Both the position numbers and the translations under genes were made by a program. Below, piece by piece: positions 36,724 through 52,384 of a DNA stretch of 64,000 nucleotides; positions within the stretch are counted from its first letter, which is position 1; each line of letters opens with the position of its first letter. Origin of the DNA: Candidatus Zhuqueibacterota bacterium. GTDB lineage: Bacteria > Zhuqueibacterota > Zhuqueibacteria > Thermofontimicrobiales > Thermofontimicrobiaceae. The stretch is from NCBI GenBank assembly GCA_049322915.1, contig JBMOPW010000001.1, positions 78,193 through 142,192 of the forward strand, given 5' to 3'. The notes under the pieces were generated by a model, which was not told the origin of the DNA, searched no databases, and saw nothing but the letters and a program-made list of their open reading frames with translations.

Positions 36724-36769
36724 CCGCCGGGCTTTTCATGCTGCCCTGCGGTTTCAGCGGCTCGTTGCA

Positions 36770-38209
36770 TTATTTAAATTTACTCATCCATCGGCCCCGT
36801 TCATCTTCCGGGCTGAATACAACCTTTACTTTTTTCTTCGTTTCCGGCGCCGGGGGTGGCACATTCCCAAGCAGCTTTTCTTCTTCGACGACCTTAATCG
36901 TGTTTTCAATATCAAAATTTTTATCCAGCAACTGGTCAAATCCGGCCGTAATCACTGTGTGCTGGTGCGATTCGAGGATGTTATTCAGCAGATCATTCAG
37001 CGGCTGGAAATTGAAATCCTGGGGCTTGCCCTGTTCCATGTAATTTCGAATGTGCTGCTCGGCAGACGTCAATGCATTGAATACAGATTCGTCCGGGGTC
37101 TGATTGTATGAAAGTCGTTCTTTTGCAAGTTTATCCAGCAGCGTTAAACTCGGCTGGACATCTTTCACGTGAAAGCAATTGGCGGCATCGCGGAGTCCGC
37201 TGCACGACTCTTTAATGCGCATGATCGCTTCGCCCGGGGATTGCTCGTCTTTAACTTTTTGCAACGATTGCTTCAGAAAGTCGAGATTTTCGATGGTCTC
37301 TTCCCTGAAGATGTCATTAAAAACCTGTTCTATCTCCTTTGCCTGACTTTCCCGTTGGCTTTTTTTTTGAGCCAATTGCGACAGATCAACATCGATGAGA
37401 TGATTTGCCGGGCTGTCTGTTTGAACGGCGACCGGCGCTGTTTCCATCGCTTCCTCTGGCGATTCCGCGACCGCCGGCTCAGGAGTTTCGGAAAGAACTG
37501 GTTCCTGGTTCTGCATCGGCTCGGGAGCCTGACTCACCAGCTTTTTGTGATTCTCAATTTCCTCCACCAATTTCATGAGCGAATCCAGTTCTTTAATTTC
37601 GAACTGCGGAGGCTGTTTGATTTCCTGCGGCGGGATGGTGGCTGGAATGATGTCGTCATCTGAAGTATCATCAGCTAAAAATTCCAGTTCGGCGAATTCG
37701 GCTGGCAAGGGTGGCGTCTTTTCGCTGGCCGGAGGTTTCGGCTCGTCGGCTGATTGAATGGGCGTCTTGTCGGGCATGATCTCCACAGCCTGTGACGGAT
37801 GCATAGTTTGCGTGATCTCGCGAATGAGTTTTTCTTCTTCAACGTCGTTATCGATTCGCACCATCTGTCGGATGGCTTTCAAAGCGATGTGAACCCGAAG
37901 TCCAATATCTTCGGGCATCGAATTCTGCTCATGAGTGAAATTTGCCATGGCCGAAGCCAGATTAAATGCCAGTGATTCAATACCGGGATAGCCGTACACC
38001 ATAGCCAGATCTTCCATGTTCTCGGCGCATTCCAGAATAGCGCCCACCATAGCGCCATCCAGTTCCTGAACATTTTGTTCCGGTATCAACTGCTCGATAC
38101 TTTTTAAATTGCTCTCAATTTCCTCAAGGCAGTAGGCGTTGAATTCTCTCCGTTGAGTTTCGGTTTTCCCATCACGATCGTTCATATTCATCATCCGACT
38201 CATTTTCAT
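36770..38209 (-). CDS. Hypothetical protein with two degenerate Hpt/CheA-P1-like domains and an acidic Pro-rich linker
   Basis: YCLEEIESNL...ECAENMEDLAMVYG and IFREETIENL...ESCSGLRDAANCFH follow the P1 pattern F..E..E.L...(H)TLKG.A...G. Confidence 0.75.
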   Translation of the reverse strand: MKMSRMMNMNDRDGKTETQRREFNAYCLEEIESNLKSIEQLIPEQNVQELDGAMVGAILECAENMEDLAMVYGYPGIESLAFNLASAMANFTHEQNSMPEDIGLRVHIALKAIRQMVRIDNDVEEEKLIREITQTMHPSQAVEIMPDKTPIQSADEPKPPASEKTPPLPAEFAELEFLADDTSDDDIIPATIPPQEIKQPPQFEIKELDSLMKLVEEIENHKKLVSQAPEPMQNQEPVLSETPEPAVAESPEEAMETAPVAVQTDSPANHLIDVDLSQLAQKKSQRESQAKEIEQVFNDIFREETIENLDFLKQSLQKVKDEQSPGEAIMRIKESCSGLRDAANCFHVKDVQPSLTLLDKLAKERLSYNQTPDESVFNALTSAEQHIRNYMEQGKPQDFNFQPLNDLLNNILESHQHTVITAGFDQLLDKNFDIENTIKVVEEEKLLGNVPPPAPETKKKVKVVFSPEDERGRWMSKFK

Positions 38210-38306
38210 TTTATTCTAATTCACTCCATGTTACATCACCATAGGTGGAACACAGCTCCAGCCATAAATATTTCTCGACGAAAACCATTTTCGATGAGCC
38301 ATGATT

Positions 38307-38657
38307 TCATGCAAATTTGCTACGAAACATAAAATAGACCGCTCCTACCAGACAGAGTCCGGCCCACAGGTAATCCAGCTTGAGCGGTTCTTTCAGATAG
38401 AAAACTGAGAAAGGCACAAATACAGATAGTGTGATCACTTCCTGGATTATTTTTAACTGGCCAACTGTAAGCATTCCATAACCAATCCGATTGGCCGGCA
38501 CCTGAAGCAAATACTCCAGCAGCGCAATCCCCCAACTGACAATCGCCGCGATGATCCACGGTTTATTGTTCAATTCTTTGAGATGAGCGTACCAGGCAAA
38601 TGTCATGAAAAAATTACTACAAATCAAGAGCGATACAGAGATCAAAATAGGATTCAT
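38307..38657 (-). CDS. Small DMT-superfamily membrane protein
   Basis: SNFFMTFAWYAHLK, SWGIA..EY..QVPANRIG, QLKIIQEVITL. Confidence 0.9.
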   Translation of the reverse strand: MNPILISVSLLICSNFFMTFAWYAHLKELNNKPWIIAAIVSWGIALLEYLLQVPANRIGYGMLTVGQLKIIQEVITLSVFVPFSVFYLKEPLKLDYLWAGLCLVGAVYFMFRSKFA

Positions 38658-38706
38658 ATTCGATTTCAGGCGCCAATAGTTTTATCGTCAGTTTTGTGTG
38701 ATAACC

Positions 38707-40452
38707 TTAATTTAAATCCATTCTTAATTTCGTCTTCAGGTCCTCCTGTTCAATATGCAATTCGTCCTTCATACCTTCTGCAGCATTCGGTTGAAACAGA
38801 TTCTTCAGACTAAGCTTATTTTTTTTTAGCGAACCATTACGCTGATGGTCAATCAGAAGGGTCAATTTTTCAATGATGTACTGAGCGTCGGACAGCGCAT
38901 TGTTGTCATTGACCAGCATGCCCGCCAGGATCGATGGAATATTATGAAAGTGAGGCATAAAATCTTCAGTAACGATCACTTTCTTCAGCAAAATTTCTTC
39001 GAATAGTCCACCGATGAACATTGCGAACTCTTCGATTTTATCATGCGAATAGAGCTGCGCTGAATTTTGAAGAGCAATACAGGCATTCTTGATGTTGCGG
39101 AATAGCTTGGGATCCTGATTCATCAGATTAATATGATTCAGTGATTCCTTCAGGATATTCAAGTCGCCGGCTATCTCTTCCGAAAACATCTGGTCGAACA
39201 CCCGATGAGCCGATTGCTTTGGCTTTTCCTGCTCTCTGGGTTCCTCATCACGAATCACCTTCCTGTCATTGCCGGATTTTTCCTCTTTTTGAAGTATCAT
39301 TTCCGGGGCCGGTTTGACAATCTTATCTTCCTTCACCGGGGTGACGAATGTTTTGCTTTCCTTGATATCGAAAAAAGGGTTGGCATCCACCTTTTTTTTC
39401 TCCATCGGCGCTGGTTGCGGTTTTGCTGTTCGTAATTCCCCAGCCGGACCTTTGGCTTTTGTGCCGGTCGCAATGAGCAGGACGCGAATTTTATCCTCCA
39501 TGCCCGGATCAATGCGCGCGCCCCAGATAATGCGGGCGTTGGGATCCAGCTTCTCTGCAATGGATATCATCACGCTGCGGGCCTCGCGGATTGACATGGA
39601 TTCGTTGCCTGTGATATTGATTAACGCACTTTGCGCGCCGGTTATATCCACATCGAGCAGGGGATTATCGATCGCTTTAGCGACGGCGTCCTGAGCTTTG
39701 TTTTCTGTATTGCTTTCGCCAATCCCAATCATCGCTGTATCGCCATCCTTCATGATCGATTTGACGTCCGCGAAATCGAGGTTCACCAGACCTTTCTCAG
39801 TGACCAGTTCGGTAATGCCTTTCACGGCATTGGTTAAAATTTCATCGGCGACTTTGAACGCGGCATTCAGCGGCAGGTCCGGAACCATATCCAGCAACCG
39901 GTCATTCTGGACGACAATGACGGTGTCAGAATGTTCCCGCAGTTTGGCTAAACCGGCCTTTGCATTTTCGCGGCGCATCACACCCTCTTCGGTGAAGGGC
40001 AGCGTGATGACAGAAATTGTGAGCGCATTCAAACTGCGCGCAATTTCCGCGACGACGGGCGCAGAACCGGTACCTGTCCCTCCGCCGAGACCGCACGTGA
40101 TGAATACCATGTCGCAACCTTCCAGCAGTTCGCGAATCTCCGCCTCGTTCTCCCGTGCTGCGCTTTCACCAATTTGAGGATTACTGCCCGCGCCCAATCC
40201 GTTCGAAAGGTTTTTTCCGATGAGGATTTTATGTTCAGCCTTTGTGAACAGCAGATCCTGGGCGTCTGTATTGACCGCTACAGTTTCTACCCCTTTAATA
40301 CCGACTTCGGTCAACCGAGTAATCGTATTATTTCCCGCGCCGCCCGCACCAATCACCTTGATTTTCGTGCGATGCGTTTTGAGTAAACTTTCCAGTTCTT
40401 CATCTTTTGTTTTCAAAGTGAACTCCTTTGTGGATATTTTCTCCCTCGACAT
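38707..40452 (-). CDS. ftsZ: FtsZ (archaeal FtsZ1-like core) fused to a C-terminal Hpt-like domain
   Basis: GAGGAGNN, NTDAQ, GLGAG.NP, GGGTGTG, PF..EG..R, T7 loop GLVNLDFADV; linker at aa ~331-417; Hpt-like helical domain at aa ~418-513. Confidence 0.95.
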   Translation of the reverse strand: MSREKISTKEFTLKTKDEELESLLKTHRTKIKVIGAGGAGNNTITRLTEVGIKGVETVAVNTDAQDLLFTKAEHKILIGKNLSNGLGAGSNPQIGESAARENEAEIRELLEGCDMVFITCGLGGGTGTGSAPVVAEIARSLNALTISVITLPFTEEGVMRRENAKAGLAKLREHSDTVIVVQNDRLLDMVPDLPLNAAFKVADEILTNAVKGITELVTEKGLVNLDFADVKSIMKDGDTAMIGIGESNTENKAQDAVAKAIDNPLLDVDITGAQSALINITGNESMSIREARSVMISIAEKLDPNARIIWGARIDPGMEDKIRVLLIATGTKAKGPAGELRTAKPQPAPMEKKKVDANPFFDIKESKTFVTPVKEDKIVKPAPEMILQKEEKSGNDRKVIRDEEPREQEKPKQSAHRVFDQMFSEEIAGDLNILKESLNHINLMNQDPKLFRNIKNACIALQNSAQLYSHDKIEEFAMFIGGLFEEILLKKVIVTEDFMPHFHNIPSILAGMLVNDNNALSDAQYIIEKLTLLIDHQRNGSLKKNKLSLKNLFQPNAAEGMKDELHIEQEDLKTKLRMDLN

Positions 40453-40557
40453 TGTTATTTTCCTTCAATTAGCAGTAAAACTGCACTTTATATTACCCGC
40501 ACCATATCAGGTTTGGAGAAACTAATTTAGTGAAATGGCTGAGGAAATCAGCATCGA

Positions 40558-42342
40558 TCAGATTTTTGATGACCTCACTCCCGGCGAACCAAACGTCGTA
40601 TTGAAATATTCTTTCAGTGTTGTCAGTATGGAAATGAAGTGGACCTTGTGTTCCGCATTATTGCGGTCAAAAATCTTAAGCAGCGTCATTCCGCTTTCCA
40701 TGCTCTCCAGGATATTTCCCGGCAATTTGATGTTTCGCTTGTTGGTCTGAAAACAAATGGATTCCATCAACTCCGGCAAGAACGCCATTTTCTCAAGTCC
40801 AAATTTCTGAGCCAATTGATTCAGAGACGCGCTGGCCAATTCAATATCCTCCAGTGATGCTTGATATTTTTTACCCTGGGTCAATTGAGCCAGGGCATTC
40901 AGAATGATCTTGTGGTACAAACTGGCTTCCTTATGGAAGCGATCCAGTGGATTCCTGACTGACTCATCGATTGGTTTCTCGTCAGATTTTTCAGCATCGG
41001 ACTGGCCTGCCTCAATTGTGTCTCCTGCTCCGGTGTGAATCACCTCGGCTGAGGCGATTTCGTCATGACTCGTTTTCTGAATGAACGGTTTTGCCGGGGG
41101 AATGATTTCCTGTAATAGAATCAATAATTCTTCATCTTCCTCCCCGGGTAACTTAAATTCCAATAGGTCCTTATCAATAATATCGTCATCTTCTGGAACA
41201 ATTGGAGTCACAGGCGTAACTTTATTGACTTTTTCTTTATTATCGATCTCCGCGGGAACCGGCGCCACCGACTCCGATGGTGACAATTTCTCTGCATCCG
41301 GAATCGCCTGTTCCTTTTTGGAAATCAGTTCCTGAGTTTCTTTTTCAAGAGGGGCAATCAACACATTCGAACCAGCGTGTGACAGATAACTATCGAATTT
41401 TTGTAGCTGGTCCTCGATATGCTCGACGTGCTGATGATGGAAGACCATTTTTTCAATAGTGGTTTTCGCATCGAAAATTAATCGAATGGCCTCCTGGTCT
41501 GGGGTTTGGTTCGCTTCGAGATTTTTTTTCACAATCTTCACCGCGCGATCCGCAATTGCTTCGATCTCGTCATGTCCGTGATACATGGAGACTTCTTTGA
41601 TATTATGGAAGCTTTCGAAACACATTTTTAAATCGGACCGATGCGTGAGAAACCAGGATGGCTGCGATGTCATCCTGGACAGTGGTTTGAGCAGCTCGAA
41701 AATCTCTTCTTCGAAAAATCCCTGAAGAATATTGTTGTTTAATACTGCGTTGTTTTTACGCGCTGGTGCGACTGTACTTTCTGGTTGACTTTGCGGATCG
41801 ATTTTGGCCGCTGACTCTGCTTTGACCGTGGACCGATAGACTTTCAATTGAGGGGCCGCTGATGGCACACTGTCCGTGTCTTTGGTGGCTGATTTTCGGA
41901 GCATCGAGCGCAAATTAGTTTTGATATTCAGATATTTTTCCAAAGTCGCCCTATCGTTGGCTTCTGTCCCTACAATCCGCACTAATTTCGACATGAAAAA
42001 CTGGGCATAATTTTTAATCGCCTCTTTCAATTGCGATTGATCCAGGCTTTTCAAGTCCAATTTTAGAAGATGGTTTTCGAGATCCGAGTACAACGTGGAG
42101 AAGCTCTGAATCTGAGTGATTTCTTTCAACTCAAGCGCCGGCTGCGGGGACTCAACCAGATAGTGAATGAAATTGGAAATGACGCGAAAAGAGGCCTCAT
42201 CAATGGTTTTCAATTCCAGGGTCTTGTTTTGCAAAAAGCTTGACACACAAAAGTAGAAGTAGCTCTTGGGATGAAAAAACCGATTTATTAATTCCAGATA
42301 GAAGTGGTTCAATGTCTCAAATTTAGTCTGCATACAAACCAA
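40558..42342 (-). CDS. Hypothetical protein with two Hpt/CheA-P1-like domains (the first retains His)
   Basis: FFEEEIFELL...ESFHNIKEVSMYHG and RFHKEASLY...LASASLNQLAQKFG. The start may be ATG 42333. Confidence 0.75.
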   Translation of the reverse strand: MVCMQTKFETLNHFYLELINRFFHPKSYFYFCVSSFLQNKTLELKTIDEASFRVISNFIHYLVESPQPALELKEITQIQSFSTLYSDLENHLLKLDLKSLDQSQLKEAIKNYAQFFMSKLVRIVGTEANDRATLEKYLNIKTNLRSMLRKSATKDTDSVPSAAPQLKVYRSTVKAESAAKIDPQSQPESTVAPARKNNAVLNNNILQGFFEEEIFELLKPLSRMTSQPSWFLTHRSDLKMCFESFHNIKEVSMYHGHDEIEAIADRAVKIVKKNLEANQTPDQEAIRLIFDAKTTIEKMVFHHQHVEHIEDQLQKFDSYLSHAGSNVLIAPLEKETQELISKKEQAIPDAEKLSPSESVAPVPAEIDNKEKVNKVTPVTPIVPEDDDIIDKDLLEFKLPGEEDEELLILLQEIIPPAKPFIQKTSHDEIASAEVIHTGAGDTIEAGQSDAEKSDEKPIDESVRNPLDRFHKEASLYHKIILNALAQLTQGKKYQASLEDIELASASLNQLAQKFGLEKMAFLPELMESICFQTNKRNIKLPGNILESMESGMTLLKIFDRNNAEHKVHFISILTTLKEYFNTTFGSPGVRSSKI

Positions 42343-42429
42343 TACCGAGTAATGACGTGGAGAAACCTGATAGTGTGTGTTTTTTCATTGGGCAAAAAGT
42401 CAAATGTTCAGCTTTGAATTTTTTTTTAG

Positions 42430-42930
42430 CCGGATAATTCCCTGGATAATACTCAGGCAACGCAGCGAAAGGCTGGATTGCCGGTCTCGTGTACACAGGC
42501 TCAATCCTTATTTAGCGTAATTTCAGCTTTGCGCTAACGGTTACAGTGATGAGGGTTTATTTGTGGCCGATGTTTCGAATGATGATGCCCACATCGCTGC
42601 GGAGAATTCCAGGTATCCATGGCTCCATTGACCGACTTATTCAAACAGCGACGCGCGGAGTTCACTGTCATTTCTGTTCAGTCGGTGCAATTCAGACGGG
42701 CAAAGCGGAGACCGTTATCAGAAAATGGAAGATGTGCTAAAGATGGTCAACCCTGGCGGCAATGCAGTCTTAATTTATCTGGGGAATCGCCGCCGAAGCC
42801 CTCGGAAATGCCCCGGATGACCCATTGCCCGTCTGCATCTCGGACGTTCCGTGAAAGGCCATTTGGTCGAAGCGTTGCCGGTCGCGTTTCAGATGCGATT
42901 GGCACACGTATCGTTTCAATGAGCGAACGG
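42430..42930 (+). ncRNA. Candidate large (~500 nt) structured RNA inside the FtsZ-Hpt locus
   Basis: 600-bp gap with no convincing ORF and many helices, including a perfect 11-bp pair (42693-703/42825-35). G-U pairs favour the + strand. Confidence 0.45.
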
Positions 42931-42941
42931 AGTGATCAGTG

Positions 42942-43658
42942 CTACAAGATGGCAACTTGTTGTTGAAATTTTTCATAAAGCTTCAGCACGGCCGGGACGT
43001 AGCTGCGCGTTTCTTCCCACAGCAAGGCCCAGTCGGTCTTATTGTTGCGGTTCTTCAACCACAGCGCCGCGCGTTTTTCGCCTCCATTATAAGCTGCCAG
43101 CCCGCCGTCGATTTCATAAAGGTGAATTAAATTAGACAGATAGCGGCAACCCATTCGAATGTTCAGGATCGGATTGAATAAAATCTCCTCCGGCGTTGTC
43201 CATTCAATGCCTTCCTGAATTGCCAGCAGTTCGCCGGTTTTTGGCATGATCTGCATCAGACCCAACGCACCAACAGGCGAGACAACATCTTTTCGCCAGG
43301 TCAGTGCGCTCTCATGGGTGATGGTCGCGCAAATGAGATCGACGTTGAGATTGTCGTATTTCAGGCTCATCTTAAAAATCTCATCGGCGATTTCATATTT
43401 CTCATCCGGAGTGATCGTTCGATTGTACTGGTCAATTATTTTAATAATTCTCTGGATTTTATATTGCCGAACACTCTCGATGTTCAATGCATTTTGCACA
43501 GACGCCAGGTGATTTTCAATGAAAGCCATTTGCTTCGTTGTATCTTCTGTAGAAGTAAGCTTGTGAGAAAAACTAACGGTTGAAATGAATACCGCAAATA
43601 TCAAAGTAATTAATAACATGGATTTTAATGAACTCAACCCTCTTTTGTCTCGCTTCAT
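42942..43658 (-). CDS. Lytic transglycosylase (SLT domain) with N-terminal membrane anchor/signal
   Basis: THES (catalytic Glu), GALGLMQIMP, NI.MG.RYL, AAYNGG, ETRSYV. GGAGG precedes ATG 43658. Confidence 0.92.
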   Translation of the reverse strand: MKRDKRGLSSLKSMLLITLIFAVFISTVSFSHKLTSTEDTTKQMAFIENHLASVQNALNIESVRQYKIQRIIKIIDQYNRTITPDEKYEIADEIFKMSLKYDNLNVDLICATITHESALTWRKDVVSPVGALGLMQIMPKTGELLAIQEGIEWTTPEEILFNPILNIRMGCRYLSNLIHLYEIDGGLAAYNGGEKRAALWLKNRNNKTDWALLWEETRSYVPAVLKLYEKFQQQVAIL

Positions 43659-44062
43659 CCTGACAACCTCCCACATTCGTAATAGACTTAATGTTGACAT
43701 GTGCTTGTTCTGGTGGACACCCCACCTTTTTTCAGTTACAAATTACTACCAGCCGTTCGAATTGATTTCTACGATAACAGAAAATGTTTTCACTGGAAGT
43801 CTATGTAACAAATATAGAGCCAAACTAATCGAAATGAATTTGTTGTTCACCCTCAGTCGGATTCTCTAAACGTGATTCTCCTATTTTAATCTGTTATAAT
43901 AAAAAAAGTTATCGGCCAAGATGAAACTGATCAAAACGGGCGATAACTCTATACCAATGAAATGCGATGTAAATGCGTTGTTTTTCGATAGAAAGAATAT
44001 AGTGATTTGAAAACGAGTTATGAGGTTTTTAGTTTTGTTAAATTAATGAAATTAATAAGATG

Positions 44063-44881
44063 CTATTGAAAACTCTCGGCCATCACCATCTCTTTTTTGG
44101 CTAATGATGATTCACTTGTCCCGTTCTGATTCAATAATTCAGTCGCAAGTTCCATGTAGCTATTAGCGCCTTTGCATGTTTTATCAATCAACAACACTGG
44201 TTTGCCGAAATAGGGCACTTCTGCAAGCCGAACATTGCGGGGAATGATAGTTTCAAAGACAAGGCCTTTGAGCGTATATTTGATTTTATCCATGACGCGC
44301 CGGGAAAGATTGTTTCGCAGATCGACCATGGTGAGTAGAAATCCCCGATATTGTAATGAGGGATTGTAATCGTTTTTAACCATTCGGGTGAGCTTTAGTA
44401 ATTTCCCCAGAGATTTCAGCGCGTAAAATTCGCACTGGATGGGAACGATGATTGAATCCGAAGCCACCAGAGAATTAAAGGTCAGCTTGCCCAATGACGG
44501 TGGGCAATCCATTACGATGAAATCGTACCTGGTCTTTAGTTTGCTCAAGGGAGATTTTAAAAATGACGTGCGGTCCTGGTGGATCTGTTCGAGTTTGTCT
44601 TCATCTTCAGCCCAGAAATTCGAAGGGATGAAATCGAAATTGTCCATAAGAGTGGGATGGATAATTTCGTCGAGCTCTTTCGATCCGGTGATCAATTCAT
44701 AGACGCCAGCTTTGATATCATATTTCCCATAGCCAAAACTTGTTGCAACATGTCCCTGCGGATCCAGGTCAATGAGCAACGTCTTATGGCCCAATGCAGT
44801 GAGACTGGCGCAGAGGTTTACAGCGGTCGTTGTTTTGCCAACTCCCCCTTTTTGGCTAACGATTGAAATAATCTCGCTCAT
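44063..44881 (-). CDS. parA: ParA/Soj family ATPase (no adjacent parB)
   Basis: QKGGVGKTTT, DLDPQG, DCPPSLG, PIQCEFYAL, IPRNVRLAE. Confidence 0.93.
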   Translation of the reverse strand: MSEIISIVSQKGGVGKTTTAVNLCASLTALGHKTLLIDLDPQGHVATSFGYGKYDIKAGVYELITGSKELDEIIHPTLMDNFDFIPSNFWAEDEDKLEQIHQDRTSFLKSPLSKLKTRYDFIVMDCPPSLGKLTFNSLVASDSIIVPIQCEFYALKSLGKLLKLTRMVKNDYNPSLQYRGFLLTMVDLRNNLSRRVMDKIKYTLKGLVFETIIPRNVRLAEVPYFGKPVLLIDKTCKGANSYMELATELLNQNGTSESSLAKKEMVMAESFQ

Positions 44882-44897
44882 ACATAGTCCCTGAAAC

Positions 44898-45593
44898 TTA
44901 AATAAATTTTCCAATATTCTGAGAACTGTATTTTTTCAGCAGCGTTCTCCAACCGCTATGAATGGTTTTTCGGATTGGAGTCTCTGAAAGGGTTGTATCG
45001 TAATAGCCATCGTTCCATTTGAGCACATTTGATAGTGCCTTCTCGCCTTCTAGCGTCCCGACCTGGGCATGGATTATTTCACCCGCCCTGAAGTGAATTA
45101 CACCATTCTCTGTACCGTTTGAAATACTCAAATTACCATTGAATTTTTTCTGGCAATTCCGGATGATGATGTCCGCCAGATTCAATTCGACCAGTCGACT
45201 CTTATAGTTATCGGTAGATTTCTGGACAGCTTGATGGATTATTTTTTTCAATTCGGCGATCTCGAATGGCTTTTCAATGAAGTAAACCGAATTTGGAAAT
45301 GCAAGTCTGTCTCTGAGCTCGATACTGTCCGAAGCTGTCATAATGATGACTTTCATTTGAGAATGATACTTTTTCACATAATCCAGAAGTATCAATCCGT
45401 CGATTCCTGGCATACGAATATCTGTTATGAGCAAATCCAGGGAGAAGCGCCTGATCACTTCAAGCGCTTCCTCCCCGGAATTGACACACATTATTTCGTA
45501 CTGCTCGTTCTCTTTCCTGAGACTTCGTGCTATACTCCACGTCAGATCCTCTTCATCATCCACGATGAGTATTCGTTTCGGATCGGAAGTCAT
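44898..45593 (-). CDS. Response regulator: REC plus DUF4388 (PATAN) domain
   Basis: ILIVDDE, TDIRMPGIDG, IIMTA, IEKPF, then LNLADII...GNLSI...GVIHFRAGEIIHA...GEKAL...W..G. Confidence 0.88.
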   Translation of the reverse strand: MTSDPKRILIVDDEEDLTWSIARSLRKENEQYEIMCVNSGEEALEVIRRFSLDLLITDIRMPGIDGLILLDYVKKYHSQMKVIIMTASDSIELRDRLAFPNSVYFIEKPFEIAELKKIIHQAVQKSTDNYKSRLVELNLADIIIRNCQKKFNGNLSISNGTENGVIHFRAGEIIHAQVGTLEGEKALSNVLKWNDGYYDTTLSETPIRKTIHSGWRTLLKKYSSQNIGKFI

Positions 45594-45654
45594 TGATGTT
45601 TCCCCTGTTAGATGCATGAACGATAATGTGTTAGTAGTACTTCAATGCCACCAG

Positions 45655-45671
45655 CGCAAAAAGTATGCCAG
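45655..45671 (-). promoter_or_regulatory. Sigma54 -24/-12 promoter for the REC-PATAN / parA unit
   Basis: Minus strand reads CTGGCATACTTTTTGCG = GG-N10-GC with TGGCA and TTGC, about 60 nt upstream of ATG 45593. Confidence 0.75.
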
Positions 45672-46073
45672 TGGACGGCGTCTTTCGGGCCAGGTGTCCA
45701 TTGATGAAAATTCAGACCGATGAGAGGAGATAGAATTTTAATTTTTAGTGAATTAGGGTGGTGATTATTCATTGGAAAATTTATCGTGTCTGGAAGAGGG
45801 CAACGCCTGTTTGCACAATTCGGTAATTACAAATTCCGACTGACCGATAATTGACCAAACTCGATTTGATTTAAGTCGGTGAGTACTTTGAATCGCTATC
45901 CATTTGTTTTATTGTGCTGAAATCATGTTTTGAGAAATCATTTATATGAATAACAAACAATTAGGCTGAAAATGGCAGGGGAGAAGGACAGCGACATCGC
46001 TGAACGTGTGGATATTCCGGGGCATGGAGCAGTGAGGCAATCAGCAATTACATCATTGAAAACGGGTGATAAA

Positions 46074-46129
46074 TAAAAACGACCGGACAGAAATGAACAA
46101 TGAATGCATTCATTTCAGTCCCGGTCGTT
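46074..46129 (-). terminator. Intrinsic terminator after the sigma54 activator gene
   Basis: Inverted repeat aacgaccgg...ccggtcgtt with a T-run on the minus strand. Confidence 0.6.
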
Positions 46130-46149
46130 GAAATTGTAATAGAAAAAAA

Positions 46150-47517
46150 TTAATTTATACCGTACTGTTTCAATTTTTCTCTGAGCGTCGAGCGAGAGAT
46201 ATTCAATACGCGCGCCGCTTTGGATTTATTGCCATCAAAGCGTTCGAGCACTTCGATAATGTGTTTTCGTTCGATGTCCTGAAGCGAGAGATTGTCATTG
46301 GACTGGGGGCTGGCCGGCACGACTTTTATCTCCTTGGGCTGAGAATTGTATAATTCCCGAGGCAGATGTTCAACGTCAATGATATTGGTGCTGCATAGAA
46401 TGGATGCCCGTTCCATTACGTTCTTGAGCTCGCGCACATTGCCGGGCCATTCATAATTCAACAGCAGGTTCTCCGCTTCCGGGGTAAACCCGGTGATGCG
46501 CTTCGAAAATTCTTCATTATAAAGCTCGACAAACAATTTGGCCATGGGAATGATATCGTCCATTCGCTCGCGGAGCAGGGGCAAGTTAATGACCATGACT
46601 TTCAGGCGATAATACAGATCTTCCCGAAACGATCCGTTGTCCACGCACTCTTTCAAATCCTGATTCGTGGCAGCGATGATGCGGACGTCGATTTTGATAT
46701 CGGAAGTCCCGCCGATTCTGCGAAAGCTCTGCGTTTCGAGCACCCGAAGCAGTTTCGGCTGGAGCGACAGTTTCATGCTGGAGATTTCATCCAAAAAAAG
46801 CGTGCCTCCATGGGCTAATTCAAACACGCCTTTCTTCACATTCTTGGCGTCAGTGAACGCGCCTTTTTCATAGCCGAATAATTCACTCTCCATGAGATTT
46901 TCCGGGATGGCGCTGCAATTGATGGGTATTATCGGCTTCGTGGCTCTGGCGCTCCAGTTGTGGATAGCCTTGGCCACCAATTCCTTACCAGTGCCGCTTT
47001 CGCCCTGAATAAGAACCGATGTCTTGGGAGTCTTTGCCACCATTTTGATCATATCTTTCACAACTTTGATCTTGTTGCTTTTACCGAAAATGGCTGTATC
47101 CGGGTAGCGCTTCCGCTCGGCTAATTTTAATTGAGAAACTTCGCGTTTCAATTCATTGATTTTCAATGTCTTTTGTGTGACCAGCCGAAGCTCGTTGTGA
47201 TCGCAAGGCTTCATGAGATAGTCGTACGCGCCTTTTCTCATGGCATCAACTGCGGAAAGGACTGTGCCATGAGCCGTCATCATAATGATGATCAAATCCG
47301 GATCGATGTCCAGCGCTTGGGTGAGCACTTCCATCCCGTCCATTTTGGGCAAGCGAATATCCAGCAACACAAGATCGAATATTTCTTGTTTCAATAATTC
47401 AAGCGCCGCCTCACCGGAGCTTGCAGTGCTTACTTCGTAGCCTTCCTTTTGAAGACACTTTGAATAACCTAATGTTAAATCTTCCTCATCATCAACTATG
47501 AGAATACGCTCGTTCAT
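46150..47517 (-). CDS. Sigma54-dependent response regulator (AtoC/NtrC family)
   Basis: REC domain, GESGTGKE, ESELFG, GAFTDA, FREDLYYRL, WPGNVREL, HTH. Confidence 0.94.
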   Translation of the reverse strand: MNERILIVDDEEDLTLGYSKCLQKEGYEVSTASSGEAALELLKQEIFDLVLLDIRLPKMDGMEVLTQALDIDPDLIIIMMTAHGTVLSAVDAMRKGAYDYLMKPCDHNELRLVTQKTLKINELKREVSQLKLAERKRYPDTAIFGKSNKIKVVKDMIKMVAKTPKTSVLIQGESGTGKELVAKAIHNWSARATKPIIPINCSAIPENLMESELFGYEKGAFTDAKNVKKGVFELAHGGTLFLDEISSMKLSLQPKLLRVLETQSFRRIGGTSDIKIDVRIIAATNQDLKECVDNGSFREDLYYRLKVMVINLPLLRERMDDIIPMAKLFVELYNEEFSKRITGFTPEAENLLLNYEWPGNVRELKNVMERASILCSTNIIDVEHLPRELYNSQPKEIKVVPASPQSNDNLSLQDIERKHIIEVLERFDGNKSKAARVLNISRSTLREKLKQYGIN

Positions 47518-47523
47518 TAATAC

Positions 47524-49590
47524 CTACTCCTCCGTTGGTAAGAGCAACGTAAACGTTGTCCCTTTTTCCATGATACTGTCAACGCGAATTTCACCTTTAT
47601 GTTCTTCTACTATCCTATAGACAATCGAAAGCCCAAGTCCGGTTCCTTGCGGTTTGAGTGTGAAAAATGGATCAAATATTTTTCCCAAATCGTCAGGTTT
47701 GATCCCGGCCCCGGTGTCGCGAACCGTCACTTCGACGTAACGTGATTCCCTGTTCAAATTAGAGAATCCCTTTTTCCGACGATCTCTCGCGTAAATGATG
47801 GTTTCAACCGTTCGTGCTTTCAGCTCCAATCGGCCACCGTGTGGCATTGCTTCAATTGCATTCAAAAACAGATTGATAAACACCTGTTGAATCTGCTGAT
47901 AATCCACAAACACCTTCATGAGATTCGATTGAAATTCTTTGGTGTAGGTGATTTTATTCTTTTTGATGCGATCGTCCAGCAGAATATTGACTTCCTGAAT
48001 GATGTCCTCCAGTTTTTGGAGCTTGCGAATCGGCTGTCGTGGCCGCGCATAGGAAAAGAGTGTGCGAAGAAGCTCATCAAGACGATCGACTTGCCGGACA
48101 ATTCGCATCAGATATTCCTGGCGCGGGTCGCTTTTTTCAATTTCTTCTTCGAGGGTCTGGGCCATAGTCTTGATGCCGGCAAGGGGATTCCTCACCTCGT
48201 GCGCAATGCCGGATGCCAATACGCCCATGGAGGCCAGGCGATCCATCCGCACAACCTCCATCTGCATTTGCTTGATCTGTGAAATATCCCGGAATGAGAT
48301 GATGGTGCCGACTTTCAGGTTATGATTATCAATGCGCGGTGTGATGGTAAATCCCACAAAGACCTTCGTCTTATCTTTTCGGGTCAATTCAATTTCTCGG
48401 TTGAGCAGCGATTGATCCTGCGAAATACTATCCGGCAACAGTTTCCGGCTCAGTTCCCCCAAAATCTCATCCAGATTTTTTCCCACTATTTCTTCGGCTT
48501 TGTAACCCAGCACCTCCTCAGCGCCGTTGTTGAACGATGTTATTTTGCGTTCCAGGTCAATGGTCAGCAGGCCGGCGCCCATACTCTGGATGATACTCTC
48601 ATTGAAATTCTTCAACTCCGTGATTTCTTGCTCCAGCTCTTTGCGCTGGGTAATATCGCGGGCAATTCCAACCACACCCATCACTTCGCCCTTTTCAAAG
48701 ATGGGGTTGATGTTCATCGACAAAAACAGGGGAATACCGGTCTGGCAAATCAGACGAATTTCGAAAATCCGCGCTTTCCCTTTTAATGTCAGATTGAAGT
48801 TGTTGCGCGCCTCCACGCGATCTTCCGGGGCAACCAGATCGAAAAAGCTGCGGCCAATCCAATCCTCCCTGGCAAATCCGGCAAGCGTAATCAGCCGGCG
48901 ATTGATGAAAATGAAATCACCTTTCAGATTCAATGTGTAAATTAAATCGTTGGCATTCTCAATGAGGTCCTGGTACTTGTATTCGGTGCGCCGAATTTTC
49001 TGTTCCAGCTCTTTATTTTTCTGCCGAACCTGGTGAAGTATGAACACATTGTCGATGACATTCATCAACTCCCGATGCCCGAACGGTTTGACAAGAAACG
49101 AAGACAATCCCATTTCAAACAGCGCTGTGCGATCAATATTGTACTCGGTCTGGGCGGTAATCATGATCACCGGTGTGTCTGAAAGATGCTTGTACCGCTG
49201 ACTGGTGACGAGCCGTTGAAATACTTCTGCCCCGCTCATTGACGGCATCATGTAATCGAGCAAAATCAGATCTGGCTTGTAATTGAGAATGAAGTCCAGG
49301 CCTTCCTGTCCATTGGAAGCGTAAAAGAAATTGTACCCGGCCGAAACGATGATCTTTCTTCCGATTTCCACCATGTCCGGATCGTCATCGACCAGCAAAA
49401 TTGATTTTTTGTTGGTCGCTTTCAAACTGACAGTTGCATGGGTGATAGCCTGGCTGCTTCGGTAAATGTGGTCGCTGATTAAATTTTCCAGGTCCTTGAT
49501 GCTTTTCTTGTCTTTGATGGTAAACAGTTCCTTGGATTTATGCTTGACCGGCAGTAAATCCCCATCATTTGTTTTATCATTGTTCACCAT
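47524..49590 (-). CDS. Cytoplasmic hybrid histidine kinase (REC-PAS-PAS-HisKA-HATPase)
   Basis: LLVDDD..DYMMP..KPF; two PAS domains; AHEVRNPL; NAIEA; DTGAGI; FDPFF; GTGLGL. Confidence 0.93.
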   Translation of the reverse strand: MVNNDKTNDGDLLPVKHKSKELFTIKDKKSIKDLENLISDHIYRSSQAITHATVSLKATNKKSILLVDDDPDMVEIGRKIIVSAGYNFFYASNGQEGLDFILNYKPDLILLDYMMPSMSGAEVFQRLVTSQRYKHLSDTPVIMITAQTEYNIDRTALFEMGLSSFLVKPFGHRELMNVIDNVFILHQVRQKNKELEQKIRRTEYKYQDLIENANDLIYTLNLKGDFIFINRRLITLAGFAREDWIGRSFFDLVAPEDRVEARNNFNLTLKGKARIFEIRLICQTGIPLFLSMNINPIFEKGEVMGVVGIARDITQRKELEQEITELKNFNESIIQSMGAGLLTIDLERKITSFNNGAEEVLGYKAEEIVGKNLDEILGELSRKLLPDSISQDQSLLNREIELTRKDKTKVFVGFTITPRIDNHNLKVGTIISFRDISQIKQMQMEVVRMDRLASMGVLASGIAHEVRNPLAGIKTMAQTLEEEIEKSDPRQEYLMRIVRQVDRLDELLRTLFSYARPRQPIRKLQKLEDIIQEVNILLDDRIKKNKITYTKEFQSNLMKVFVDYQQIQQVFINLFLNAIEAMPHGGRLELKARTVETIIYARDRRKKGFSNLNRESRYVEVTVRDTGAGIKPDDLGKIFDPFFTLKPQGTGLGLSIVYRIVEEHKGEIRVDSIMEKGTTFTLLLPTEE

Positions 49591-49814
49591 GACATTATAC
49601 TCTAACTTAGGACAAAAAAGTTATCGCGCGTTTTTTCACACGCATTGTTTGATTCCTCAACAATGAATGAAGTGCGCTACCATTCAACCATCAGCCATCC
49701 TGGGGATGGCCTTATATTTAGCTTTTTCCACTAAGGAACCGCGCAGGCAATTCCTGTGTATAGTAAGTCCGATTCAGTTTAATTCTGCGAAGCCAGTGAA
49801 AGCGGGCATTTGCC

Positions 49815-51317
49815 TCATTCGATGATGTCCACTTCCTCAAAAGATTTCGAATATTCATTTTGAATTTCCCGTTCGCTTGGCTTGGGAATCGAAAAGGAAA
49901 ATCTTGAGCCTTTATTCAACTCGCTCTCCACCCAGATGGCGCCATCATGCAACTCAACGATTTCTTTGACCAGGGATAATCCCAATCCCGAGCCGGTGAC
50001 ATCCTGGATGTTTTCGTTGTCCGTAACGCGGTAAAATTTATTAAAAATTTTATCGATCGATTTTTGTCCGATTCCATACCCCTGATCGATGACGCTCACC
50101 ACCTGCTCCCGGGCGTTATCTTCCACAGATATTATAATTTTCTTCCCATCAGGACTGTATTTGACGGCGTTGGAGAAAAGGTTTAGTACCACCTCGCCCA
50201 TCATTTCCTGGTCGACCCACACTGTCGACAGATCCTCCGGAATTTCGATTTGCAGATCCATCCCTTTCTGCTCCGCCAGGTACATGTTCATTTCGAGGAT
50301 GTTCTCAATGACATGCTTCATATTCACATAGGTTTTATTGACCTGGCTTTTGCCTGATTCGATCCGTGAAATGTCTAAAAATTTATTGATGAGATCGCCC
50401 AAACGATTGGATTCTTTGAGAATGATTTCGGCATACTCTTTGGACTGGTCCTGGGATACGCCCGAATCCAACAGCAGTTCACTGAACCCGGCTATGGACG
50501 TGAGAGGCGAGCGCAATTCATGGGCGACCATAGAGACCAGATCCGTTTTCATTTTGTCAATTTCTTTTTCCTTGGTAACGTCTCTGAATACGGTCACAAT
50601 GCCGATCAACTCATGCTTGGTGTTGATGACCTGAGCTGCCTTTGCCTGAAGCACGATCGATTTTTTTCTGTCCGCCGGCTTAATTTCAATTTCGACTGAT
50701 GCATTCTCCTGGTCGTTTCCGTTGATCACATCATTTATCAGCGAGAGCAATTTCTGTTCATAAATCAGTTTCTCGATAGGCTGATCGATCACTTCCATTT
50801 CGGTCAGGCCAAACCAGGATTCTGCAATGGAGTTCAACACGAGGATTTTGTGGTTCGGATCAGTGACAATGACGCCGTCGGCAATGTTCTTTAATATAGT
50901 TTCCGTTTTATTTTTCTCGGTGATAATTTTATTGAGATTCATCTCGTTCAACCGACGCAGTTCCGTCGTCATGAAATTGAAAATCCTGGCCAGTCTTCCT
51001 AATTCATCATCGGAACTGCTTTTCACTTTATGCGTAAAATTGCCCCGCGCAATTTCTGTGGCGCTGCGGGTGAATTGGCGGATTGGCTCGTTGATTCGCT
51101 TGGAAAATGAAAGCGCACTCAGCGCCGCCAGAATGATAGTGAGTAAAATGAGAGAAGCGCAAAACAGAACGGTTGAATTCTGTTGAATCAGCGCGGCGTG
51201 AGCGCTTGTCTTCAGAAAGAAGACTAAACAGATTATCAGGGGGAAAAGCGAAATACCCAATAAGACAAAAAATAATTTTCTGGATAAAGATTGTTTCTCT
51301 AAAATTTTGAGTGGCAT
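49815..51317 (-). CDS. Membrane histidine kinase (2TM-HAMP-PAS-HisKA-HATPase)
   Basis: DELGRLARIFNFM; PAS; AHELRSPLT; NAVKYS; DQGYGI; GSGLGL. Confidence 0.93.
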   Translation of the reverse strand: MPLKILEKQSLSRKLFFVLLGISLFPLIICLVFFLKTSAHAALIQQNSTVLFCASLILLTIILAALSALSFSKRINEPIRQFTRSATEIARGNFTHKVKSSSDDELGRLARIFNFMTTELRRLNEMNLNKIITEKNKTETILKNIADGVIVTDPNHKILVLNSIAESWFGLTEMEVIDQPIEKLIYEQKLLSLINDVINGNDQENASVEIEIKPADRKKSIVLQAKAAQVINTKHELIGIVTVFRDVTKEKEIDKMKTDLVSMVAHELRSPLTSIAGFSELLLDSGVSQDQSKEYAEIILKESNRLGDLINKFLDISRIESGKSQVNKTYVNMKHVIENILEMNMYLAEQKGMDLQIEIPEDLSTVWVDQEMMGEVVLNLFSNAVKYSPDGKKIIISVEDNAREQVVSVIDQGYGIGQKSIDKIFNKFYRVTDNENIQDVTGSGLGLSLVKEIVELHDGAIWVESELNKGSRFSFSIPKPSEREIQNEYSKSFEEVDIIE

Positions 51318-51342
51318 GGCATGATTCCTTGTCAGCAGAAAA

Positions 51343-52293
51343 TTATTCTAATACAACCTGGTTGCGCCCATTTTTCTTCGCTCGATAAAGCCGTTTATCC
51401 GCCACGGTCACCAGAGTGTCCGGCATGGTTGCGTCTTCGGGAAACGTCGCAACGCCCATGCTGATGGTTAATTTCCCGTTGGGTTGGGTGTCTTCAAAGT
51501 TAAATCTATGCTGTCCAATTAGATTTCTAATTTTATCAGCGACAATTCCGGCGGCGTCCTTTCGGGTTTCGACGAGAATTAATGCAAATTCTTCGCCGCC
51601 GTATCGAGCAGCCACATCAATTTTCCGAATATTGCTATGCAACAGGGACGCGATTTTCTTCAACACCAGGTCCCCGGCCGGATGGCCATGTGTATCATTA
51701 TAATTCTTGAAATAATCGATATCGATCATAGCAATGGAGACATCGATGTTATGCCTTTTGGCCCGGGTGATTTCGTGGAATAGCTGTTCTTTGAAATAGC
51801 GGTAATTGTACAGCCCGGTCAGCCCATCTGTGATGGCCAATTGCCTGAGTTTTTCCTGGGCAAGTTCCAATTCTTTTATTTTTAATTCCAGTTCATCGTG
51901 CAGGTGCTTGATACGAAGCAGCGATTTGACCCGCGCCAATAGCTCCAGTTTATTGAAAGGCTTGCACAGGAAATCATCCGCTCCGGATTCAATGCCTTTC
52001 AGCTTGTCCTCCAGTTCATTCAGGGCTGTCACCATGATGACCGGAATAAACCTGGTTTTGTCGCTATTTTTCATGCGGCGGCAAACCTGATAGCCGTTCA
52101 TTTTCGGCATCATAATGTCGAGCAGAATTAGATCTGGAGATTCCTCTTCTACTCGTTGTAAAGCTTCAACTCCATCTTGCGCTAAAATAACTTTGTAACC
52201 TGCTGCCTCGAGATATGTTTTCTGTAATTTCCTATTCAGAGGTATATCATCGACAACCAACACAGTTGAGCGCTCAGGACTCTTGTTAATCAT
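51343..52293 (-). CDS. REC-GGDEF diguanylate cyclase (PleD/WspR-like)
   Basis: REC domain; DGLTGLYN; DIDYFK.YND..GH..GD; I-site RKID; RYGGEEF. Confidence 0.94.
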   Translation of the reverse strand: MINKSPERSTVLVVDDIPLNRKLQKTYLEAAGYKVILAQDGVEALQRVEEESPDLILLDIMMPKMNGYQVCRRMKNSDKTRFIPVIMVTALNELEDKLKGIESGADDFLCKPFNKLELLARVKSLLRIKHLHDELELKIKELELAQEKLRQLAITDGLTGLYNYRYFKEQLFHEITRAKRHNIDVSIAMIDIDYFKNYNDTHGHPAGDLVLKKIASLLHSNIRKIDVAARYGGEEFALILVETRKDAAGIVADKIRNLIGQHRFNFEDTQPNGKLTISMGVATFPEDATMPDTLVTVADKRLYRAKKNGRNQVVLE

Positions 52294-52384
52294 ACGGTTC
52301 AGATCTCCTGGTCGTTGTCAGTCAAAGATGACTATCATTTATAATATTGTATCAGAGTCGTTGAACAATATTATATCCAGTCCG

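Follow-up and report, generated by a model that had tools for sequence, protein, structure and literature searches.

In bacteria, the control of FtsZ normally lies with proteins dedicated to division, and the C-terminal peptide of FtsZ (D/E-I/L/V-P-x-F/Y-L-R) is the binding site for FtsA or ZipA. The T7 loop of the protein (NxDxxD) is required for GTP hydrolysis within the FtsZ polymer. Systems in which ParA-family proteins position FtsZ include MipZ, PomXYZ, and MinCDE, and FtsZm of magnetotactic bacteria is another extra FtsZ paralogue. In the available part of one report, the few bacteria with two ftsZ genes are described as carrying the extra copy outside the division and cell wall (dcw) cluster (PMC9871819). 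A different kind of precedent is FimL of Pseudomonas aeruginosa, a component of the Chp/type IV pilus system, which the accessible portions of the literature describe as having two domains that resemble histidine phosphotransfer (Hpt) domains, with Gln replacing the acceptor His, canonical phosphotransfer being unlikely (PMC3019171), and as interacting with the hub protein FimV and the receiver protein PilG (PMC10519157, citing Inclan 2016; PMC12632253). Here, an eleven-gene locus is described from a 64,000-nucleotide stretch of DNA (the window) of a Candidatus Zhuqueibacterota bacterium of the phylum KSB1 (contig JBMOPW010000001.1, positions 78,193 to 142,192). In this locus, a second FtsZ paralogue, named FtsZx, is fused to a domain of the CheA P1 type and is encoded with a receiver (REC) protein, a ParA-like ATPase, a lytic transglycosylase (SLT), and two proteins, A and B, that carry the same type of domain.

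On balance, the locus is probably a KSB1-wide accessory FtsZ module that is induced by its own two-component/sigma54 circuit and that uses pseudo-Hpt domains as docking scaffolds. Its parts are all of known kinds, and it is their fusion and combination that are new. According to the list of open reading frames of the window, eleven minus-strand frames, all in the same orientation, occupy positions 36770–52293. This arrangement, put forward in an earlier sequence-only reading of the window, was confirmed, and nine of the gene labels are backed by Pfam. The features are as follows.

51343..52293, minus strand: REC-GGDEF response regulator, probable diguanylate cyclase, which opens the regulatory block (Pfam Response_reg, E 1.5e-32; GGDEF, E 2.5e-48)
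49815..51317, minus strand: HK1, membrane histidine kinase, HAMP-PAS-HisKA-HATPase (Pfam; two N-terminal hydrophobic segments)
47524..49590, minus strand: HK2, cytoplasmic histidine kinase, REC-PAS-PAS-HisKA-HATPase (Pfam; no hydrophobic segment)
46150..47517, minus strand: NtrC-type sigma54 activator, REC-Sigma54_activat-HTH_8 (Pfam Sigma54_activat, E 2e-70)
46069..46129, minus strand: intrinsic-terminator-like hairpin and U-tract, directly 3' of the activator gene (RNA fold)
45656..45670, minus strand: predicted sigma54-type −24/−12 promoter motif TGGCATACTTTTTGC (pattern match; conserved position)
44898..45617, minus strand: REC-PATAN (DUF4388) response regulator, first structural gene (Pfam Response_reg, E 9.8e-24; DUF4388, E 1.6e-8)
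44063..44914, minus strand: ParA/Soj-like ATPase (Pfam AAA_31, E 1.4e-52; CbiA; MipZ)
42942..43700, minus strand: membrane-anchored lytic transglycosylase, SLT (Pfam SLT, E 1.3e-19)
40558..42342, minus strand: protein A, scaffold with two His-less CheA-P1-like domains (P1-like hidden Markov model (HMM), AlphaFold2 (AF2), Foldseek)
38707..40452, minus strand: FtsZx, second FtsZ paralogue, 581 residues (Pfam Tubulin and FtsZ_C; TIGR00065, E 6.2e-126)
38307..38657, minus strand: DMT_6 membrane-protein gene (DMT_6/DUF486; Pfam)
36770..38209, minus strand: protein B, two His-less P1-like domains (P1-like HMM)

Two FtsZ genes are present in the genome that contains the window (6.25 Mb, 45 contigs). 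One encodes a 413-residue protein and adjoins FtsW, FtsQ, and FtsA in the dcw cluster on a separate contig, C11. The other, the 581-residue FtsZx of the window, is located outside dcw, between the protein A and DMT genes. FtsZx is thus a second FtsZ paralogue beside the normal division FtsZ, and the dedicated second FtsZ that had been proposed from the letters is borne out by the separate dcw copy. FtsZx passes the FtsZ family model TIGR00065 (420.5 bits against a cut-off of 295.2), its core shares 48% identity with the dcw FtsZ of the same genome, and its matches to Tubulin (PF00091, 171.7 bits) and FtsZ_C (PF12327, 109 bits) are followed by ~240 more residues. The overall architecture consists of a GTPase core (~residues 1–345), a disordered linker, a P1-like domain (residues 416–540, window positions 38833–39207), and a conserved C-terminal tail. 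Twenty-four FtsZx loci were inspected, namely the window, 20 other loci, and a further 3, and one additional candidate locus was excluded as an ordinary FtsZ. In all 24 proteins the G-box (GGGTGTG) is intact and the T7 synergy loop has the form NxDF[AS]D (NLDFAD or NLDFSD), motifs by which FtsZx is predicted to be GTPase-competent. The classic C-terminal peptide, (E/D)(L/I/V)P(T/A)(F/Y)xR, stands at the end of none of the FtsZx proteins. It is matched by 17 of 21 extracted canonical KSB1 FtsZ proteins, with variants in the other four, the canonical end having the form (E/D)(L/I/V)P(T/A)(F/Y)LR(R/K)R or a variant of it. In a quick maximum-likelihood tree, the 21 FtsZx rows make up one side of a branch with a support of 100 in the Shimodaira–Hasegawa-like approximate likelihood ratio test (SH-aLRT), and the other side holds the 21 canonical rows together with Escherichia coli FtsZ. 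A word-based search with residues 400–581 of FtsZx returned 24 clusters, every one of which is an FtsZ fusion of 548–581 residues.

Neither Pfam nor NCBIfam gives a match for protein A, protein B, or the FtsZ extension. The relationship of these regions to CheA P1 emerges from profile and structure comparison. A profile of the C-terminal 172 residues of FtsZx from the window and 20 other loci (A2, 21 rows) matches CheA P1 domains among PDB sequences at E-values of 2.4e-9 to 8.7e-8 and a P1-derived designed protein at 1.2e-16. The AF2 model of the FtsZx C-domain is a five-helix bundle with a predicted local distance difference test (pLDDT) score above 94 for residues 11–130, after which come a disordered segment and a short helix at the end, and sequence conservation is strongest on the first two helices. 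The top ten Foldseek matches of this model are all CheA P1 or a P1-derived design (1i5n, template modelling (TM) score by target of 0.80; 8c5v_C, root-mean-square deviation (rmsd) of 1.9 Å). A P1-like HMM detects two copies of the domain each in proteins A and B, and likewise in their homologues from other genomes. In protein A, the HMM matches lie at residues 211–305 and 478–556, and the AF2 model is composed of an N-terminal helical domain, five-helix domains at ~residues 194–322 and 457–581, for which CheA P1 is the best Foldseek match, and a short helix. A short acidic helix of this protein, LPGEDDEEL, is near-invariant in the form LPGE(D/E)DEEL. In protein B, the domains span residues 21–122 and 295–414, with a long acidic/proline-rich linker between them; the second is matched by the HMM at an E-value of 6.5e-14, and protein B also matches the FtsZx C-domain by BLASTP (E 1e-4). 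The disordered linkers of protein A (residues ~385–410, window ~41113–41190) and protein B (residues ~180–190) have an acidic 'DDDII' stretch in common.

In the alignment with CheA, the phosphoacceptor His48 falls on the residue that follows a conserved 'NAC', which is Ile459 in FtsZx. Across 61 domain instances, this column varies within each of the five domain types of the cluster. It is occupied by I/N/V/M/S/T/K/E in FtsZx, A/S/F/Y/E/N/Q in the C-terminal domain of protein A, E/Q/R/T in the N-terminal domain of protein B, and S/G/A/R/T in the C-terminal domain of protein B. In the middle domain of protein A, a His is seen in this window only, the residues elsewhere being L/E/Y/Q/W/N/A/K, and in a genome of the same genus this lone His is a Leu. 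The Pfam Hpt model (PF01627) has no match among the cluster proteins at E ≤ 0.01. When six domain pieces were compared with Pfam at E ≤ 10, the sole contact was that of the protein A middle domain with Hpt, at 13.8 bits against a cut-off of 24.6, and a six-frame Hpt scan of the genome found three ordinary Hpt domains elsewhere and none in the cluster at E ≤ 1. Because the acceptor column is variable and the domains fall below Pfam Hpt detection, the domains of FtsZx, A, and B are pseudo-Hpt domains, homologous to CheA P1 but without the acceptor His, and a phosphorelay through them is not supported. The 'Hpt' label that these three regions had received therefore stands at the superfamily level, by the CheA P1 profile and the fold, and the relay of phosphate that had been attached to it does not, as the acceptor His is missing. 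The three ordinary Hpt domains belong to two tandem stand-alone genes (frames of 123 and 126 residues) and to the N-terminal Hpt/P1 of a 780-residue frame, probably CheA (G000:C4:58239–58890 and C44:140817–141236).

Three further searches concern the same domains. A library-wide profile search gave 4723 proteins at E ≤ 1e-3, dominated by proteins of 1000–2700 residues with several matched stretches; it carries no taxonomy and provides no count of FtsZ fusions beyond the genomes examined. A complex prediction for REC (residues 10–140) and the P1-like domain of FtsZx scored 0.02 against a mark of 0.32, without control runs, and speaks neither for nor against binding. Lastly, in a protein-language-model search, the N-terminal domain of protein A is nearest to FimL_2nd clusters (0.86–0.88), under the 0.9 level from which a match counts as more than a lead.

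Among 167 genomes of the phylum, 89 were found to have the FtsZx C-domain; by genus, the figure is 62 of 100. With a single-sequence query it was not found in families f4, f10, f11, f12, f22, and some small families. A Tubulin-family match is present in 165 of the 167 genomes; genomes with the C-domain generally have two such matches, and those of f10, f11, and f12 mostly have one. These tallies include the unpublished genomes G162 (C-domain and Tubulin tallies) and G158 (Tubulin tally), neither of which enters into any other result given here. In families f4, f17 (G002–G005), f22, and f26, two Tubulin-family matches occur but no C-domain match to the single-sequence query. A long open frame of f22 that was considered as an FtsZx candidate was rejected, being an ordinary FtsZ of 410 residues. 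In the search for related loci, a single C-domain query gave no match, and alignments narrower than A2 gave matches. The 24 inspected loci were compared by BLASTP, tblastn, and domain HMM. KSB1, named in the sequence-only reading among the groups to compare, proved to be the right phylum. Patterns for the collection scans were derived from KSB1 sequences, and the distribution described here applies to KSB1; as the locus counts run over related genomes that are not independent, they are descriptive and carry no statistical test.

Three layouts are observed among the 24 loci. The full layout, (regulators)-REC-PATAN-ParA-SLT-A-FtsZx-(B), is that of f1, f2, f3, f5, f7, f8, f14, f17, and f18. In the minimal layout, GGDEF-HK1-HK2-activator-REC-FtsZx, found in f20, f21, f23, f24, and f25, the structural genes are reduced to two. 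In the solo layout, a longer FtsZx lies among unrelated genes (two f15 loci), with glycosyltransferase, TPR, heparinase, and AMP-binding genes as neighbors. Overall, 21 of the 24 loci have a REC orthologue beside FtsZx, the five minimal loci among them, and REC is the partner most constantly linked to it. The activator is present in 19, protein A in 17, SLT in 16, ParA in 15, and protein B in 11 of the 24. Gene order and orientation are kept across families in which FtsZx is only 36–54% identical. The co-occurrence of neighbors expected by the sequence-only reading thus holds for REC(-PATAN), ParA, SLT, and the tandem-Hpt proteins in the nine full-layout families and is not obligatory, given five minimal loci with REC and FtsZx and two f15 loci with FtsZx alone. 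Homologues of the FtsZ–Hpt gene in other genomes do retain these neighbors, and the module is a conserved multi-gene unit, beyond chance adjacency.

Some sequence features differ among the FtsZx proteins of these layouts. Thirteen of the 24 FtsZx, all five minimal types among them, have a conserved linker motif, (F/Y)D(I/V)(K/R)(E/D), at residues 361–365 (window ~39358–39372), which none of the 21 canonical FtsZ proteins shows. The possibility that this motif (FDIKE) is a relic of the classic C-terminal peptide was rejected, since both Pro and the aromatic residue are missing from it and no more than 13 of the 24 proteins contain it. Past the P1-like domain, tails were read in the window and in L042, L043, L044, and L046–L049. 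FtsZx of f1 and f3 ends in '...DLKTKLRMDLN' (window 38710–38770), FtsZx of f7, f8, f15, and f18 has a '...SNVxDAVKYFDKLF'-like end, and minimal-type FtsZx stops directly after the P1-like domain. The two tail peptides are possible candidates for binding a partner or the membrane.

The regulatory block precedes the structural genes. Its activator has a Sigma54_activat domain (236.3 bits) with the loop GAFTDA, which is the GAFTGA consensus with one change. HK1 has its hydrophobic stretches within residues 10–75 and is conserved among the loci. Homologues of HK2 are 44–90% identical where the full regulator block is present and 33–34% in the f18 loci, where kinase and activator lie downstream; no HK2 homologue was found in L044, L046, and L047, and no regulator genes were found alongside the f8 locus. 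The REC-GGDEF protein, a homologue of which stands at the equivalent place in most loci, has the cyclase motifs GGEEF (residue 232) and an RxxD site (RKID, residue 223). This adjacent gene and its motifs are the sole basis for a possible control of the module by cyclic di-GMP.

A terminator and a sigma54 promoter had been read between the activator and REC-PATAN genes, and both withstand closer analysis. The hairpin 3' of the activator gene has a folding energy of −25.7 kcal/mol (z −4.93; none of 200 shuffled sequences reaches this stability) and is followed by UUUUUAUUU. It was missed by a simple terminator scan because of its long loop, and the simple sigma70/terminator scan as a whole performed no better than on shuffled sequence. 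The −24/−12 motif TGGCAT-N5-TTGC is located 38 nucleotides upstream of the REC-PATAN start codon. In the gap between activator and structural genes, TGG[CT]A[CT]-N5-[TC]TGC is found in 13 of 16 loci and in three further ones, giving 16 of 19 loci with the motif at the equivalent place, and in twelve of these 16 its distance to the start codon is 50–79 nucleotides. By chance, ~0.003 matches would be expected per 400-nucleotide gap, equal base frequencies being assumed. The full window holds 4 such motifs where 5.1 would be expected, which is no enrichment. The site is thus a conserved, predicted promoter of the sigma54 type between the activator and the first structural gene.

In the REC-PATAN protein, the receiver residues D20, D21, D66, and K116 are conserved, and residues 141–227 match DUF4388 (35.1 bits against a cut-off of 25), which we take to be the PATAN domain. 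A DDEEDLTWS segment is common to the REC orthologues, those of minimal loci included. Most full loci have a REC with a PATAN domain attached; the five minimal loci all have a REC without it. Its presence solely where ParA, SLT, and protein A occur hints that PATAN addresses those parts. The ParA-like protein (AAA_31, 178.6 bits; CbiA, 87.6 bits) has the deviant Walker A motif KGGVGKT, and its true start is likely Met12. A second ParA/Soj paralogue, 45% identical to that of the cluster and presumably the chromosomal one, is encoded elsewhere in the genome (G000:C32:156842–157609). The SLT protein has one N-terminal hydrophobic segment within residues 21–48 and an SLT domain of the family-1 lytic transglycosylases (70.3 bits against a cut-off of 21.3), in which a 'THES' motif, read by eye, is presumably the catalytic Glu-Ser motif. 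Besides REC-PATAN, an additional stand-alone receiver gene (~130–139 residues) lies just downstream of ParA in L042 (10222–10617), L043 (8572–8991), and L045 (10248–10640), before SLT in f7 and before protein A in f14, which is without SLT.

The eleven genes are flanked, by Pfam, with a glycine-cleavage P-protein gene (GcvP; GcvP2_C, GDC-P; 52385–53836, minus strand), which adjoins the REC-GGDEF gene upstream on the same strand, and with LptD on the opposite strand (34012–36723). GcvP also stands next to REC-GGDEF in the f1 and f3 loci and in the five minimal loci (f20, f21, f23, f24, f25), and a functional link is not obvious. Within the locus, the DMT gene, earlier counted as a member, is found in this window alone among the 24 FtsZx loci and is not in the genome of the same genus; it is therefore not a member of the system. 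In that genome, the protein B gene begins 76 nucleotides past the FtsZx gene with no DMT gene between, and the DMT gene of the window has the look of a recent insertion. The gap between the SLT and protein A genes (42343–42941) is 599 nucleotides here against 104 in the same-genus locus L034, and its sequence occurs once in the genome. A 115-residue opposite-strand frame in this gap (42619–42966) has no Pfam match. An Rfam scan of positions 36500–52600 gave no family at the gathering score, and no RNA runs covering the structural block are listed.

To account for these observations, the following mechanism is proposed. HK1 and HK2 would phosphorylate the activator, upon which the sigma54 promoter would fire and REC(-PATAN), ParA, SLT, protein A, FtsZx, and protein B would be made. 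The kinases would drive other receivers as well. The pseudo-Hpt domains would act as docking surfaces and not as phosphate carriers, by analogy with the scaffold FimL of Pseudomonas, and their likeliest ligand would be the REC protein of the cluster, so that the state of the kinases would also gate where or whether FtsZx polymerises. In full loci, A and B may cross-link or anchor the filament, ParA may place it, and the membrane-anchored SLT may make local openings in the wall. What results would be division of an alternative or modified kind, or a change of shape, under particular conditions. A more specific version can be offered only tentatively, as one that is possible but falls well short of probable. 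In this version, the dead phosphotransfer domains of FtsZx, A, and B would directly read the phosphorylation state of REC and thereby act as a switch by which a second FtsZ polymer is assembled or placed, and this polymer, with ParA and SLT, would drive an inducible alternative division or differentiation across KSB1.

Several points weigh against an inducible accessory FtsZ module of this kind. The five minimal loci have no ParA, SLT, A, or B, two f1 loci of the full type are without ParA, and one f14 locus is without SLT. As ParA and SLT are missing from some FtsZx loci, placement and wall cutting are not essential to the function of FtsZx. The FtsZx proteins of f15 (732–782 residues; L046:5850–8048, L047:11331–13679) keep the P1-like domain and have none of the usual partners. 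In three of 19 loci the sigma54 motif was not found, a near variant being present in one of them, and, given the intergenic gaps of 362 and 599 nucleotides within the structural block of the window, a single transcript is putative. The docking of REC on P1-like domains is likewise putative. The FtsZ tree comprises 43 rows, from a quick search with E. coli FtsZ as the one outgroup. Finally, to our knowledge no KSB1 bacterium has been cultured.

Other explanations were weighed against the same evidence. FtsZx could be a brake or tuner of division that co-assembles or competes with the housekeeping FtsZ and poisons or retunes the Z-ring upon a stress or differentiation signal from the kinases, with the pseudo-Hpt proteins and the REC protein setting its dose. 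The absence of the membrane-anchoring C-terminal peptide would give FtsZx this effect, and the 48% identity of its core, the retention of all polymerisation and GTPase motifs, and the minimal loci, in which REC and FtsZx suffice, are in agreement with it. Precedents exist in the available parts of two reports: the Anabaena PATAN-REC protein PatA interacts with division factors and destabilises the division complex (PMC7380572), and truncated FtsZ paralogues of Hyphomicrobiales are proposed to tune division (PMC13732431). A simple brake, however, needs no ParA, SLT, or pair of scaffold proteins, yet nine families keep them, and the long branch between FtsZx and canonical FtsZ suggests separate polymers over co-polymers, without being decisive. 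A brake is considered unlikely. A regulator of a polar hub or surface apparatus, in which FtsZx, ParA, and SLT would construct or position a local structure of the envelope (a pole, a stalk, or a secretion or adhesion site, for example), appears rather improbable. REC-PATAN proteins and FimL-like scaffolds are characteristic parts of the chemosensory systems by which type IV pili are steered, and PATAN is found on REC in most full loci and in no minimal one. PATAN response regulators of Synechocystis interact with the type IV pilus motor, according to the accessible part of a preprint (10.1101/2021.06.11.447907). The second-best NCBIfam model for the SLT protein is a flagellar-assembly transglycosylase, far under its cut-off. 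The similarity of protein A to FimL_2nd (0.86–0.88) is below the level for more than a lead, language-model scores under 0.9 being often due to chance, and the 24 loci showed no genes for pili, flagella, or secretion.

A genuine phosphorelay, in which the Hpt-like domains of A, B, and FtsZx pass phosphate among the four receiver domains, perhaps by way of a non-canonical acceptor residue, would suit the homology to CheA P1, the two kinases and four receiver domains of the locus, and the His-x-x-Lys at the canonical place in the middle domain of this window's protein A. It is very improbable in view of an acceptor column that varies across all five domain types and of a Pfam Hpt model that recognizes three domains elsewhere in the genome and none in the cluster. 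Scarcely credible is the absence of any functional unit, with unrelated genes being syntenic by chance in close relatives. The large intergenic gaps of the window's block, the DMT gene, clearly a local insertion, and the likewise syntenic GcvP without an obvious link could be read in this way, but gene order and orientation persist at FtsZx identities of only 36–54%, three cluster genes have in common a domain that is otherwise unrelated to FtsZ, and the sigma54 motif is conserved.

If the tentative version, in which the dead domains directly read the phosphorylation state of REC, is correct, the locus would represent a two-component system that has a cytoskeletal filament as its output, and not transcription alone. 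A phylum-wide second FtsZ in which a degenerate CheA-P1 domain replaces the membrane-anchor peptide points to two-component signalling wired directly onto a tubulin-like polymer. This FtsZ is accompanied by a receiver protein, by scaffolds of the pseudo-Hpt type, by ParA, and by an enzyme that cuts the wall, and it has a sigma54 switch of its own. Together with FimL, the locus would make two independent cases in which dead Hpt domains have been given a new use in docking. FtsZx, REC, A, and B are parts open to heterologous study, from a phylum of which we know no cultured member. Literature searches on KSB1 and FtsZ, FtsZ and the Hpt domain, FtsZ paralogues, and FtsZ/PATAN/ParA/sigma-54, in a collection that leaves most subscription journals outside its coverage, found no description of the system. 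Two surveys of FtsZ evolution do not mention an FtsZx-type fusion in the parts available, and two KSB1 genome papers, likewise seen as partial text (PMC9012183, PMC11683472), were not among the literature matches for FtsZ.

Compared with known systems, the regulatory block resembles NtrB/NtrC in its kinases, its REC-AAA+-HTH activator, and its predicted −24/−12 promoter. It differs in that its kinases number two and its receiver domains four, with a GGDEF cyclase carrying one of these receivers, and in that the target genes are cytoskeletal and not metabolic. PatA, in which the PATAN domain comes first, similarly has REC and PATAN in one protein, but the order here is REC then PATAN, and minimal loci have a REC without PATAN. 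As in MipZ, PomXYZ, and MinCDE, a deviant-Walker-A ATPase of the ParA/MinD type is encoded with FtsZ. In contrast to those systems, partners resembling MinC/MinE, PomX/PomY, or ParB are not recognised here and ParA is absent from 9 of 24 loci; a direct action of ParA on FtsZx is putative. The additional FtsZ proteins of other lineages (archaeal FtsZ1/FtsZ2, truncated Hyphomicrobiales FtsZ) are likewise located outside dcw and have an altered C-terminus, a combination that suggests subfunctionalisation. FtsZx, however, is extended and not truncated, and neither fusion to a signalling domain nor pseudo-Hpt partners are reported in the portions of the literature found on extra FtsZ proteins. The domains of FtsZx and protein A share the five-helix fold and profile homology with CheA P1/Hpt, but the cluster domains are without a conserved acceptor His, fall under Pfam Hpt detection, and have no kinase core attached. 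The closest parallel is that with FimL. From what the available text on FimL states, its Hpt-like domains are related to the N-terminus of a CheA-type kinase, and A, B, and the FtsZx tail also have His-less P1-like domains encoded beside a receiver protein. At the sequence level, the likeness is limited to the language-model lead of 0.86–0.88. The partners differ, being pili, FimV, and adenylate cyclase for FimL and an FtsZ paralogue, ParA, and SLT here, and in this locus one pseudo-Hpt domain is fused to FtsZ itself.

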